Shown one piece after another: positions 2,624 to 8,015 of a DNA stretch of 64,000 nucleotides. Location: IMG/VR virus record IMGVR_UViG_3300031857_000001. One strand, given 5' to 3'. A model generated the notes under the pieces. The model searched no databases. It had not been told where the DNA came from and saw only the letters and a list, made by a program, of their open reading frames with translations. The position numbers and the translations under genes are program-made. Position 1 is the stretch's first letter, and each line of letters opens with the position of its first letter. Origin of the DNA: a virus (Duplodnaviria > Caudoviricetes).

Positions 2624-3076
2624 ATGGAATTAATAACGACATACATTTGTAAGAAAGGTGACGAGGGTGTTCACGGAAATATGTTCGGAGGTTTAATACT
2701 CGGGCTTATTGATGATGCGGCTGCTTCATACGCCTCTCAAATCTGTGACACTCAAAAGATTGTTACATTGAAGATTGATGAGTTGTTATTTAAACGAGCG
2801 GTAAAAGTTGGAAACATATTAAAAGTTTATGGTGAGGTCGTTTCATTTGGTAATACCTCTGTTACACTTTATATCGAAGTTAGAAAACACAATGTTTATA
2901 CAGGTGAGCAAGACATTGTAACTCAAACAAAAATTGTTTTTGTTAGAATTGATGAGGACGGAAAACCCAGACCGATTCATCATCATGTTAAAGAAAGATA
3001 CTGGGAAAGATTAGAAAAATTTGGAAAGGGTCTCCTAACTCCCGAAGAAAAATTTAGAATTGGTTCAGAGATTTAA
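2624..3076 (+). CDS. Acyl-CoA thioesterase (HotDog fold, YciA-like)
   Basis: GNMFGGLILGLIDDAAA and FGNTSVTLYIEV...TKIVFVRIDEDGKPRP are typical HotDog thioesterase motifs. Confidence 0.88.
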   Translation: MELITTYICKKGDEGVHGNMFGGLILGLIDDAAASYASQICDTQKIVTLKIDELLFKRAVKVGNILKVYGEVVSFGNTSVTLYIEVRKHNVYTGEQDIVTQTKIVFVRIDEDGKPRPIHHHVKERYWERLEKFGKGLLTPEEKFRIGSEI

Positions 3077-4208
3077 GAATATTATTGTCTTAATAATACT
3101 CACATTATGTGGGTTAATTTCTATTGCCCAATGTCCAAACGCAAATTTTGAATTTGGTAATTTTACAAACTGGACAGGGAGAAGAGGATTTTGTTGCCCA
3201 ATTGATTTACCTTTTGCTGGAATTTTTCCGGGAAGACAAACAATTGTAAGTGCGGGTATTGACCCCAATACATGCGGAGGTCTCAATACGGTTTATGACG
3301 GAAATTTTTCAGCCCGTCTTGGAAACAACCAAAACAATGCAAGAGCTGAAGGTTTATATTATACATTTACTGTTAGTCCGGCAACAACTTTGATACAGTA
3401 CGCTTACGCGGTTGTATTACAAGACCCTGGCCATAGCGATGGGGCTCAACCAAGATTTCAATCAAGAGTTAGACTTGCAAACGGAACAGTAATTCCTTGT
3501 ACCGAGTACATGGTGACGGCCGGACCTAATTTGCCAGGTTTTAATTATTGTACAATGCCGGGCAACCCAACACCAATAGCTTGGAGTGATTGGAGGGTTA
3601 TATCATTAGACTTATCAGGGTATGTTGGACAAAGTGTTACACTTGAATTTGAAACGGGTGATTGTGATTTAGGTGCTCACTATGGATATGCCTATATCGA
3701 CGCAATATCTTGTGGTCCGATTGAAACAAAAGTTTATTATTGTCAGGCAAGTGATTCTACATTGATTGAAGGTCCGGAAGGTTTTGCGACATACCAATGG
3801 TCACCAACAGGAGATAACACAAGAGTTATTACTATTCCATCAAATACTTACACCAATTTGACATTGAGTGTAACAACTATTACAGGATGTGAACTTGACC
3901 TTCAAATAATCCTTGACCCGATACCCTTATTATCAAGTATAATATGTGAAGATGTATGTTTTCCTGACATAGTTAATTTTACAAATTTAACACCACCTAT
4001 TCAGGGGTATCAAACCGCCTATTTATGGGACTTCGATGATGGACAAACTTCAAATTTATATTCTCCATCACATACGTATAGTTCTCCCGGTGTCTATAAT
4101 GTGACGATGACCGCTCATGTTGTGGGGACAAATTGCACAGACAACGCAAATTGTGAAGTTGAGGTTTACGACATTCCAATAATACCTGGAATTATTAGCC
4201 ACGATTAG
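3060..4208 (+). CDS. Secreted PKD-domain protein (Bacteroidota adhesin-like)
   Basis: Signal peptide, CPNANFEFGNFTNWTG N-terminal domain and PKD motif YLWDFDDGQTS...PSHTYSSPGVYNVTMT. Ends IISHD. Confidence 0.85.
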   Translation: MVQRFKNIIVLIILTLCGLISIAQCPNANFEFGNFTNWTGRRGFCCPIDLPFAGIFPGRQTIVSAGIDPNTCGGLNTVYDGNFSARLGNNQNNARAEGLYYTFTVSPATTLIQYAYAVVLQDPGHSDGAQPRFQSRVRLANGTVIPCTEYMVTAGPNLPGFNYCTMPGNPTPIAWSDWRVISLDLSGYVGQSVTLEFETGDCDLGAHYGYAYIDAISCGPIETKVYYCQASDSTLIEGPEGFATYQWSPTGDNTRVITIPSNTYTNLTLSVTTITGCELDLQIILDPIPLLSSIICEDVCFPDIVNFTNLTPPIQGYQTAYLWDFDDGQTSNLYSPSHTYSSPGVYNVTMTAHVVGTNCTDNANCEVEVYDIPIIPGIISHD

Positions 4209-4255
4209 TCTTTTTCAAGATATTTATAGTAGAATAAACTCTAACTACTTTAAAC

Positions 4256-4813
4256 ATGAAAAAACTCTTATTACTTGTACTGGCAATACTACCAATCACA
4301 CTTTTTGCTCAATTTACCACAATTAATCCCGATACAGTCTGTATAAATGACCCTTTTGCAACTTATCAGGTTCCAAATACTCCAAACTATACTTATGTAT
4401 GGTCAGTTTCGGCTCCCGGTATTTTAACATCAGGACAAGGAACTAATGAAATAACTGTCGACTGGTCGGCCGCTCCTGCGGGCGGTCCTATAGTAGATGC
4501 GATTAGTGTTTATGCAACAACACCTGCTGGTTGTGACGGACCCCCAATCACGATGAATGTATTTATTCTTGAAATCAACCCTGTGGTTACTCCACTTGTA
4601 TTTTGTGAAGGTGACCCTTGCGAAGATTTGGTTGCAACACCGGCTGGTGGTGTATTCTCAGGACCAAACATTGTTAATGGTCAATATTGCCCACAAACGG
4701 AGGGAACAGAAACGGTGACTTACACCATAACTGAGGCGGGATGTACATTCACTGCGACAGCTGATATGACCGTCTATCCAATTCCTGTTTTAGACAATAT
4801 TTCACATGACTAA
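4256..4813 (+). CDS. Secreted PKD-like/Ig-like protein
   Basis: Signal peptide MKKLLLLVLAILPITLFAQ and YTYVWSV...GQGTNEITVDW PKD-like motif. Ends NISHD. Confidence 0.8.
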   Translation: MKKLLLLVLAILPITLFAQFTTINPDTVCINDPFATYQVPNTPNYTYVWSVSAPGILTSGQGTNEITVDWSAAPAGGPIVDAISVYATTPAGCDGPPITMNVFILEINPVVTPLVFCEGDPCEDLVATPAGGVFSGPNIVNGQYCPQTEGTETVTYTITEAGCTFTATADMTVYPIPVLDNISHD

Positions 4814-4815
4814 GA

Positions 4816-5388
4816 ATGAAAAACATAAAAACAATCTTGTTGTTGTTTTTTGTTATGATTATGCTTGGTCAGCAACAAGAAATAGACATTTGTGAAGAGG
4901 AGTCTAAAAAAGAATACACCTATTCAATACAGTCTGACACACCAAATACAACATTTTATTGGTATGTTGATGGTGTTTACCATTTTGGACAAACTCTAAC
5001 CGTAAACTGGGAAACTTATTCGCCCGGTATTCACACCGTAAAAGTTTATGGTAAAAGTGGAGATTGTAGGTCAGAACCCATGGAGTTTAAAGTACATATA
5101 GGTGAGTGCTCTTCAATCTACATACCAAACGCATTTACACCAAATGCCGATGGATTTAATGATACTTGGTTCCCACAAGGAACAGGATGGGAAAGTATCG
5201 AAGTACTTGTGTTTGATAGATGGGGAGAGTTAGTTTTTCAATCAGTAGACCCAAAAGGACAGTGGATTGGAAATTTTAGAGGTGGTGACTATTATGTTCA
5301 AAATGATGTGTATGAATATAAAGTCACTTGGAAGGGAATTGACAACGAACCTGAAATAATTTTTGGTCATGTAACGGTTGTTAGGTAA
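4816..5388 (+). CDS. T9SS type B sorting-domain (gliding motility-associated C-terminal domain) protein
   Basis: Signal peptide and IYIPNAFTPNADGFNDTWFP...VFDRWGELVF...GQWIG...GHVTVVR, the canonical CHU_C/type B CTD. Confidence 0.92.
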   Translation: MKNIKTILLLFFVMIMLGQQQEIDICEEESKKEYTYSIQSDTPNTTFYWYVDGVYHFGQTLTVNWETYSPGIHTVKVYGKSGDCRSEPMEFKVHIGECSSIYIPNAFTPNADGFNDTWFPQGTGWESIEVLVFDRWGELVFQSVDPKGQWIGNFRGGDYYVQNDVYEYKVTWKGIDNEPEIIFGHVTVVR

Positions 5389-6250: not shown

Positions 6251-7036
6251 ATGAAAAAATTATTATTTCTTTTTCTACTTGGGATTTTAACAACAATGTC
6301 ATCGTTTGCCCAAGCGGATACTGTTAAAACAAAAGGGTTGTTCTTTAGACCCGCAAAAAAACAAAGTCCTTTTACAAGTGAGTTTGGATTATCAACATCA
6401 AATTTGTGGAGAGGTGTTGACGTGGGTAAACAACCCGTAATTAAAATGGTTGCTGATTACGAACCAGTTCAGTGGTTTACTTTGAATACTGAAGTTAATG
6501 CAGTATACAATCAATTTAGAGAGGGTTATGCTAACACAGTTAAAAATGCGGCTATGTTTAACATCCTAAACACATCTATCGGAGTTCAAGATATATATTT
6601 CAGTCAGAATACTCCTACTCAAATTGACACATCTTATTTCCACTATAATAAGAATACGACCAATCACTTCCTTGAGGCGGTGATAAAGTACAAGGGTGAT
6701 GCTAAATCAAGAATTGACTTCTTAACATCTTATGTGTTTTATCAAAACGAGTCATATAAGAAAGGAGCGTTGTATTTTGAAGCAACATATCACTTAGATT
6801 ACAATGCTGATTTATTCGTTGGTTATGTGACAGGAGAATCACAAGTTAACTTCCAAAAAGAAAACGGATTTACTAATGTGGGTGTTGTTTTAAAGAGAAC
6901 TTTATCATTCTCTAAGGGAACTGACGCAAATTCTCGTTTGACAATAATGGTAAATCCATTGTATAAAACAGTAATTGTGACAAATCCAAGTTTGGCTAAT
7001 AGACCAATAACTGCTAATTTACAGATATTGTTTTAA
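6251..7036 (+). CDS. Putative outer-membrane beta-barrel (TorF/Gcw_chp-like)
   Basis: Signal peptide, SNLWRG motif in the first strand, alternating amphipathic strands and a C-terminal Phe (LQILF beta-signal). Confidence 0.65.
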   Translation: MKKLLFLFLLGILTTMSSFAQADTVKTKGLFFRPAKKQSPFTSEFGLSTSNLWRGVDVGKQPVIKMVADYEPVQWFTLNTEVNAVYNQFREGYANTVKNAAMFNILNTSIGVQDIYFSQNTPTQIDTSYFHYNKNTTNHFLEAVIKYKGDAKSRIDFLTSYVFYQNESYKKGALYFEATYHLDYNADLFVGYVTGESQVNFQKENGFTNVGVVLKRTLSFSKGTDANSRLTIMVNPLYKTVIVTNPSLANRPITANLQILF

Positions 7037-7199: not shown

Positions 7200-7589
7200 A
7201 TGAAAGTTATAGTTACTCATAGAAACTCAGGAATCCCACAGAAAGATTATAAATTGTTAGATTTGTTTATGAGATTCTTACAAAAACAGTTCCCACTTAA
7301 ACACGACCTGAAAGTTTTTTTTATTTCTGAAAGAACAGGAAAAATGACTACAGGTAGTAGGAATGATGAGAATGAAATTAAAATTTTAACAAAAGGAAGA
7401 ATTTATAGGGATATTCTAAGAACATTGGCACACGAGTGGGTTCACGAATATCAAAGAGACGTGTTAAAATGGAAACACGGACCGGACATAGGAGGTAGAA
7501 ATGAAGATATGGCAAATAGCGAGGCCGGGGCTCTCATGAAAATGTTTGAGAAAATATACCCCGACCTCGAAGATAAGATGTATGAGTGA
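7200..7589 (+). CDS. Zincin-like HExxH protein
   Basis: LRTLAHEWVHEYQ and a downstream E.ANSEAG motif. TATTTAT lies upstream. Confidence 0.7.
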   Translation: MKVIVTHRNSGIPQKDYKLLDLFMRFLQKQFPLKHDLKVFFISERTGKMTTGSRNDENEIKILTKGRIYRDILRTLAHEWVHEYQRDVLKWKHGPDIGGRNEDMANSEAGALMKMFEKIYPDLEDKMYE

Positions 7590-8015
7590 TTAGTCTATGC
7601 TAACCAACTCCAAATCAAAGATGAGTTTCTTACCTGCCAAAGGATGATTTGCATCAACCATAGCTGATTTTTCATTCACTTCTTTAACAACTACCATTAC
7701 TGGACCACGCTCAGTCATCCCCTGTAGTTGGTCACCAACTTTAACATTTTCAGGAAGATTCTCAAGAGGTACTTCACTTACCATACCCTCAATAACTTGA
7801 CCGTATGCGTCTTCAGGAGCAATTTCAATAGTTCTTTTATCACCAATTGACATTCCCATCAAACCTGATTCAAAACCTTTGATTAATTGTCCTTGTCCCA
7901 ATACTGCGGCCAATGGTTCACGACCCTCAGTCAATGAAGAATCGAATACAGAACCGTCTTCCAAACGTCCTGTGTAGTTAACTTTTACGGAGTCACCGTT
8001 TTGTACTATTTTCAT
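7590..8015 (-). CDS. FKBP-type peptidyl-prolyl cis-trans isomerase (SlyD-like)
   Basis: VKVNYTGRLEDGSVFDSS, LIKGFESGL, PEDAYG and VDANHPLAGKKLIFDLELV. Confidence 0.95.
   Translation of the reverse strand: MKIVQNGDSVKVNYTGRLEDGSVFDSSLTEGREPLAAVLGQGQLIKGFESGLMGMSIGDKRTIEIAPEDAYGQVIEGMVSEVPLENLPENVKVGDQLQGMTERGPVMVVVKEVNEKSAMVDANHPLAGKKLIFDLELVSID

Follow-up and report, generated by a model that had tools for sequence, protein, structure and literature searches.

A three-gene adhesin-like module of a large Caudoviricetes phage with one type B T9SS C-terminal domain and a conserved, putatively strand-donating tail

Introduction

Type IX secretion system (T9SS) cargo is, to our knowledge, thought of as single chains, each with its own C-terminal domain (CTD). 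The locus considered here comprises three adjacent genes at positions 3060 to 5388 of a 64,000-nucleotide (nt) stretch of DNA, referred to as the window, from a virus of the Caudoviricetes (IMG/VR record IMGVR_UViG_3300031857_000001); the window corresponds to G000:C1:240417-304416 in the 321,403-bp genome of a giant lake phage, which bears direct terminal repeats. The single-chain type B CTD adhesins of Bacteroidota (SprB-type and CHU-type) contain the same kinds of domains in the same order as this locus, namely a head, PKD or PKD_6 immunoglobulin-like (Ig) domains and a CHU_C/TIGR04131 CTD, and likewise begin with a Sec signal peptide. Such adhesins are expected to depend on a PorP/SprF shuttle (PMC10202324, PMC12618676), and type B CTDs are reported to need the shuttle, to remain uncleaved and to be retained at the surface by it (PMC10202324, PMC9143113, PMC12618676). 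Single-chain examples in this analysis are a 602-amino-acid (aa) paralog and a 901-aa protein in L017. Compared with these adhesins, the chain is here divided among two or three genes; every piece has a signal peptide, only the last has a CTD, and the cut always lies one residue past a conserved His.

Two types of pili also resemble the module. In type V pili (FimA/Mfa1), the C-terminal strand of one subunit fills the place of the missing N-terminal strand of the next, and the pilins are lipoproteins that polymerise after their N-terminal strand has been cut off by an Arg-protease. The likeness consists of the proposed C-terminal donor strand and the phylum, Bacteroidota; the phage module differs in having no lipobox (by inspection), no Pfam fimbrillin match and no sign of polymerisation, and in using PKD-type domains and a T9SS type B CTD as the anchor. 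In chaperone-usher pili, an N-terminal extension acts as the donor and takes the place of the acceptor's last strand, and both a chaperone and an usher are required. Here the likeness consists of a presumably incomplete Ig fold that would be completed in trans by the strand of a neighbour and of an ordered tip, adaptor and base, whereas the export route is different; no chaperone or usher gene is found in the locus in the open reading frame (ORF) list, Pfam or PHROGs. Completion of the Ig fold of one subunit by a strand of another is predicted here in silico for the gene 2 tail on gene 3, and the same segment lies in cis in fused forms of the module.

Co-export of partners that lack a signal is known from the hitchhikers of the twin-arginine translocation (Tat) pathway, such as PaoABC (PMC4273604). 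The likeness is that of a folded complex that would be carried across a membrane by the signal of a single subunit; membrane, machine and signal all differ, and the T9SS case is inferred. Among phages, the 'Cryophage' of Bacteroidota carries variable genes with T9SS sorting domains that presumably make use of the host system (PMC7468147). Its cargo differs from the present module in consisting of single proteins with type A CTDs (enzymes, PA14), with no split genes or tails described (PMC7468147), and phage-borne T9SS cargo has been reported only in the form of single type A CTD proteins (PMC7468147). Full-text searches for strand complementation, piggybacking or hitchhiking in connection with the T9SS brought up no comparable case.

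The three-gene module

Gene 1 (3060..4208, + strand; 382 aa in the ORF list) encodes the proposed 'head' subunit, which ends ...IPIIPGIISHD. It consists of a signal peptide (aa 1-24), a MAM-like jelly-roll (approximately aa 25-220), an Ig-like domain, a PKD domain and a C-terminal tail that forms the proposed donor strand (aa 371-382, ...DIPIIPGIISHD; 4170..4205, + strand). Following a 47-nt spacer (4209..4255, + strand), gene 2 (4256..4813, + strand; 185 aa in the ORF list) encodes the proposed 'adaptor' subunit, which ends ...IPVLDNISHD. Its signal peptide (aa 1-18) precedes the mature N-terminus Q-F-T-T-I-N-P-D-T-V-C, a PKD_6 domain, a second Ig-like domain and a tail that serves as the donor strand in the complex model described below (aa 174-185, YPIPVLDNISHD; 4775..4810, + strand). 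Gene 3 (4816..5388, + strand; 190 aa in the ORF list and alignment A2) starts 2 nt past the gene 2 stop and encodes the proposed 'anchor' subunit, composed of a signal peptide (aa 1-18 or 19), the mature N-terminus QQ-E-I-D-I-C, one PKD_6-like Ig domain that is the putative acceptor and a type B T9SS CTD (aa 102-189; 5119..5382, + strand). By inspection, the N-termini of all three proteins show 1-2 basic residues, a hydrophobic stretch and a cleavage-type site before Q, and the Sec signal peptide of gene 3, MKNIKTILLLFFVMIMLG with the cut before QQQ, is conserved in 31 relatives.

Profile searches agree with these layouts. Gene 3 matches CHU_C (PF13585) with 49.4 bits at aa 102-189 (cut-off 27) and TIGR04131 with 47.4 bits over model positions 2-84 of 85 (cut-off 35). 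Pfam assigns PKD domains to gene 1 and PKD_6 to gene 2, and neither protein has a recognised T9SS CTD (type A PF18962 or type B PF13585): PKD, PKD_4 and PKD_6 are the only Pfam matches at E <= 1, and NCBIfam gives nothing relevant. An earlier reading of the window that used its letters and ORFs alone (the sequence-only reading) had described three adjacent genes with individual signal peptides, the first two nearly identical at their ends and devoid of a T9SS CTD, the third a small Ig-like domain joined to a type B CTD; all of this description holds. ORFs ending in the motif number 2 of 1260 in the whole 321 kb phage genome, and these are genes 1 and 2. None of the three proteins matches a PHROGs family, and a blastn search of the locus against deposited phage genomes returns no match.

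The AlphaFold2 model of gene 1 shows the jelly roll followed by two Ig domains, with a predicted local distance difference test score (pLDDT) of 83.3. In Foldseek, it is matched best by PTPRK MAM-Ig-FN and by GhpA, the grappling-hook protein of Aureispira. The last 12 residues are without secondary structure in this monomer model (pLDDT 54-70).

Strand docking in the complex model

The docking of the tail was modelled with mature gene 3 (aa 19-190, alignment A2) and mature gene 2 (aa 19-185, alignment A1). Three runs give values of 0.65, 0.64 and 0.65 for ipSAE, an interface score derived from aligned errors, and the best of 3 controls reaches 0.00. The ipSAE mark is reached by 58 of 80 solved complexes and by 2 of 110 mismatched pairs, rates that are approximate here because the alignments were custom-made. 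At least 95% of contacts are common to the runs, and the pLDDT of the partner is at least 89.

The predicted interface is formed by gene 2 residues 174-185, together with 115, 117 and 118, and by gene 3 residues 19, 21, 34-42, 45, 75, 77-87, 89 and 91. Within it, the gene 2 tail runs antiparallel to the gene 3 strand 34-41, with residue 184 next to 35-36, 182 next to 36-38 and 178-179 next to 38-41. The contacts of gene 3 residues 19 and 21 are as expected if the two chain ends abut. Docking of a strand from one subunit onto the next, which the sequence-only reading had put forward as a possible function of the tail, is what the model predicts for gene 2 and gene 3. The gene 1 tail may dock on gene 2 in a like manner, because the acceptor Ig domain of gene 2 is homologous to that of gene 3, with the C, Y, W, G and C columns aligned. 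With the comparisons described below, a docking role for the tail is considered likely.

Conservation of the terminal motif

A gene 2 relative is present on 189 viral contigs, compared with one match in a profile search of 185,579 species genomes. The 199 gene 2 relatives are all 177-191 aa long, and among the best 120 of them 118 end in I-x-H-[DNYF], the remaining two being truncated proteins. The gene 2 alignment A1 (24 sequences, down to 43% identity) shows no variation at P177, I182 or H184. For gene 1, 158 relatives are found, and 87 of the best 120 end in I-x-H-[DNYF]; the other full-length proteins among these 120 mostly have I-x-x-N ends in which the His is replaced (IISN, IQFN, IIYN etc.). 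The tail had originally been written P-x(4-5)-I-S-H-D. A conserved terminal motif is indeed present, but that pattern is too narrow, and by sequence comparison ISHD is the clade-specific form of a general I-x-H-[D/N/Y/F]-COOH terminus. The mature N-termini are conserved too, with Q-[FL]-T-T-I-N-P-D-T-V-C in gene 2 and Q-Q-x-I-E-[IL]-C in gene 3. Heads of unrelated families carry the same tail, among them a 186-205 aa family and ALK/LTK glycine-rich, SprB-repeat and GEVED heads.

In a marine branch (L021, the contig of GCA_902510075.1, and relatives P0085-P0120), both tails end in H-Y or H-F rather than in H-N or H-D; genes for a sulfotransferase and a glutamine synthetase are among the neighbours in this branch. 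Readings of the tail as intein-like (H-N), sortase-like or isopeptide-forming were dropped in view of a terminal residue that can be D, N, Y or F, the Ig fold of the upstream domain and the plain continuation of the peptide in the fused forms.

The degree of conservation bears on the possibility that the tails are left over from gene fission and no longer have a role, in which case the three proteins would act separately and those of genes 1 and 2 would stay in the periplasm. Such an origin would agree with the correspondence of the tail to a usual linker between domains and the beginning of a strand. It does not agree with a stop position that is exact and with I182 and H184 that are invariant down to 40% identity and over unrelated head families. 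Moreover, the residues shared by the tails of genes 1 and 2 are written in different codons (AGC/TCA, CAC/CAT and GAT/GAC), which argues that the peptide is conserved by selection and is not a recent copy at the DNA level; a relic would be expected to decay or to vary in length. The relic explanation is therefore very improbable.

Linkage to the type B CTD gene

Linkage was counted in 80 viral loci holding 1581 ORFs of at least 60 aa. Tailed ORFs make up 161 of the 1581, and nearly all of these lie within the module. The usual order is a variable tailed protein (150-490 aa), the adaptor and an Ig + CHU_C protein of about 188 aa. The adaptor stop and the anchor start are separated by -1 to +8 nt in 69 loci, of which 48 show a 1-nt overlap, and head and adaptor tails have an identical last residue in 63 of 63 loci. 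Enrichment of the motif beside type B CTD genes, which follows from the idea of a shared signal, is accordingly observed across the phage loci. The order is not essential to the module, since two loci place a tailed head gene after the anchor (L039:6135-7283, 382 aa, ending LISHN; L056:6130-7497, 455 aa, ending SISHN). No tailed gene is seen immediately upstream of the adaptor in L008-L010; the contig recorded for the head relative P0143 measures 293,850 nt, as does the phage contig of L010.

That genes 2 and 3 abut or overlap could also be taken to mean that the stops are bypassed by readthrough or frameshifting to give one long polypeptide, the tail being a recoding signal. The gap from stop to start is -1, 0, 1, 2, 3 or 8 nt among the phages, so the relative frame is not kept, and every downstream gene keeps a full signal peptide. 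Together with the heads that follow the anchor in L039 and L056 and the L010 adaptor, which is seen with no tailed gene just upstream, these features make recoding barely credible.

Single-chain forms and bacterial modules

The same phage carries both a split and a single-chain version of the module. The latter is the 602-aa paralog introduced above (G000:C1:229443-231251; L108:144-1952), located about 11 kb upstream of the window. It consists of a head of the QC-x-G family and three Cys-rich repeats, followed by a part like gene 2 and an Ig + CHU_C part like gene 3, with the junctions ...D-I-T-H-N-F-I-P-C-P-D-T-T-C and ...P-I-T-F-A-S-E-Y-I-D-L-C. In terms of sequence, the tail is the segment that directly precedes the next Ig domain in the fused paralogs. 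The distance from the tail Ile to the first Cys of the acceptor is 10 residues in 62 of 69 split pairs when counted past the presumed signal-peptide cut, mature gene 3 beginning 6-7 residues before its first Cys. The same spacing of 10 residues from the Ile recurs in the 602-aa paralog, in the fused metagenomic protein P0122 and, by hand count, in bacterial modules. Since split and fused forms have this spacing in common, the split proteins placed end to end would rebuild the continuous chain. In the model of the fused paralog, T-H of ITHN forms a short strand (pLDDT approximately 77); the second junction (pLDDT 62-67) says nothing, and in alignment A4 the gene 3 Ig rows are aligned to the first and not to the third Ig domain.

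These fused forms also bear on two further explanations of the tail. First, it could be a free-standing C-terminal sorting or recognition tag, read without any docking by a host factor in the periplasm, the outer membrane or the T9SS itself. A tag of this kind would account for the fact that the tail ends the protein at exactly the same place in every case, for its presence on unrelated head domains and for a His that is invariant in split adaptors and absent from the gene 2/3 junction of fused forms. It would not explain why the segment is internal in the fused paralogs, directly before the acceptor domain, where it is no C-terminal tag. The complex model, in addition, seats the tail on gene 3 with an ipSAE far above that of the best control (0.65 versus 0.00), and tailed genes are found almost only beside matching acceptor genes. 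The tag explanation is considered unlikely.

Second, gene 2 could polymerise head to tail by strand donation between a gene 3 base and a gene 1 tip, to form a T9SS-anchored counterpart of type V or chaperone-usher pili. Gene 2 does combine a donor tail with an N-terminal Ig domain of the acceptor type, the homologue of the one in gene 3, and the head and adaptor tails are nearly interchangeable in sequence. The fused single chains, however, hold one copy of each part, which argues for a 1:1:1 complex, and genes 2 and 3 are translationally coupled, as would suit subunits made in equal amounts better than one major and one minor subunit. A polymer is regarded as quite improbable.

A three-gene module of the same kind is present in three small Flavobacteriales genomes: L107, which is a metagenome-assembled genome of the Flavobacteriales, G063 and G021. 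The heads end in ...PIIHY or ...PISHN and the adaptors in ...PIQHN, ...PIFHN or ...PISHW, after which the Ig+CHU_C gene follows. In all three genomes the module lies in a housekeeping region, flanked by guaA and a LysM gene on one side and by lolA and ftsK on the other. The module had at first been singled out as phage-encoded, a distinction that is lost with its presence on these chromosomes. A scan of 401 Flavobacteriales genomes for the DNA pattern of P-I-x-H-[DN]-stop followed by ATGAAA gives 14 matches, compared with 7 for a reversed control, and 3 of the matches are real modules; the scan serves as a finder and provides no measure of frequency.

Each of the genomes with a bacterial module contains 5-6 PorP/SprF genes, none of them adjoining the module. 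Type B cargo of Flavobacterium johnsoniae that is an 'orphan' and served by a distant shuttle is known (PMC12618676), and both the phage gene 3 and the bacterial modules, with no adjacent shuttle, are comparable to it (PMC12618676). A 261-aa ORF in the window (6251-7036, + strand) was considered as a PorP/SprF protein and rejected, as it has no Pfam match and the Atlas places it among generic outer-membrane barrels (Gcw_chp, DUF3078, phenol-MetA-like). This protein has a signal peptide and a C-terminal Phe, and a barrel of this kind is found near the module in one other phage only, as a 55%-identical copy about 3.7 kb downstream in L039.

Proposed mechanism

The favoured reading is that genes 1-3 encode one adhesin in three pieces, a variable head, an adaptor and a short anchor, which are joined by strand complementation and exported via the T9SS of the host. 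Each piece would first reach the periplasm through Sec on its own signal peptide. There, the tail of the upstream piece, with its hydrophobic stretch, I-x-H-[D/N] and exact end, would supply the following piece with the first beta-strand for its N-terminal PKD_6-like Ig domain, lying antiparallel to the conserved T-F-T-Y-S type strand of this acceptor. In this way, a domain junction that is continuous in the single-chain relatives would be rebuilt from two chains. The complex would then exit via the host T9SS with the type B CTD of the anchor as its sole secretion signal, and would finally be retained at the surface on a PorP/SprF-type shuttle of the host with the head exposed. A split adhesin that is assembled and exported in this manner is considered moderately probable, and the entire chain of steps at most to the same degree. 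The joint export of CTD-less pieces and their display on the surface are inferred; as for the purpose, an altered adhesion of the infected cell or the masking of surface receptors against further phage can be guessed at.

Several points weigh against this mechanism. Binding, export and location are all predicted, and co-export of a CTD-less partner through the T9SS was not found in full-text searches of the literature. Part of the passing score of the complex may stem from a resemblance to tandem Ig proteins made as one chain, since genes 2 and 3 amount to the two halves of a divided gene; the model indicates that the geometry fits and does not imply affinity. Gene 2 retains its own canonical first strand, T-T-I-N-P-D-T-V-C, so the seat of the gene 1 tail on gene 2 is uncertain. 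No PorP/SprF gene (PF11751) is matched in the whole phage genome at E <= 10. The His that is invariant in adaptors is replaceable in about a quarter of the head family, and F, P or N takes its place at the gene 2/3 junction of the fused forms. Its loss from the fused forms suggests that the His matters specifically when the strand is supplied in trans, and the pattern could also point to a second function.

If the split-adhesin mechanism is correct, CTD-less proteins could be exported as passengers and would be missed by counts of secreted proteins that are based on CTDs. Next to type V pili and usher systems, the module would add a third way for Bacteroidota to build surface structures by strand complementation, and would offer a short natural docking tag (approximately 12 residues, with an Ig acceptor of 80 residues) for reuse in surface display. 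It would also mean that large aquatic phages remodel the surface of their hosts with swappable heads, which bears on superinfection exclusion and on the attachment of particles in lakes and seas. A broader and more doubtful proposal is that multi-gene adhesins clicking together via a C-terminal I-x-H-[D/N] donor strand constitute an undescribed mode of building T9SS surfaces in streamlined aquatic Flavobacteriales, and that large phages have copied it. Because host and phage share the motif and the spacing of 10 residues, heads or adaptors of the phage may fit onto anchors of the host, and vice versa. With such interchange, the phage could re-arm or block a surface adhesin of its host during infection.

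Transcription and neighbouring genes

The sequence-only reading had assigned a late promoter to each of the three genes, and the window does not support this. A single TATTTAT lies ahead of any of the three genes, at 4221-4227 within the 47-nt spacer before gene 2, and the other starts overlap or abut the upstream gene; gene 1, with a TTG start, overlaps the end of an upstream thioesterase gene by 17 nt. In most related phages, the spacers measure 3-19 nt, and this close spacing indicates an operon rather than three promoter units. Over the whole window, TATTTAT occurs 61 times compared with 38.7 expected, a count that none of 100 shuffles reaches, and 46 of the 61 are on the + strand. The over-represented and strand-biased TATTTAT may be part of a phage promoter. 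A scan of the window for sigma-70-type promoters yields background level. Parts of genes 1-3 are represented in lake and river metatranscriptomes by short contigs, one of which bridges the gene 2/3 junction; with a small share of words and possible carry-over of DNA, these contigs are not evidence for timing or for the transcript unit.

The thioesterase gene upstream of the module (2624-3076, + strand) belongs to the 4HBT family (PF03061, E 4e-14) and occupies the same place in the closest phages (L003). Three other features of the window were noted by eye: the 3' part of a gene that resembles thymidylate synthase and contains a long insertion, which enters the window at its start (1-918, + strand; from the translation), a 129-aa ORF with an H-E-x-x-H motif (HEWVH; 7200-7589, + strand) and an ORF that reads like an FKBP/SlyD-type prolyl isomerase (7590-8015, - strand).

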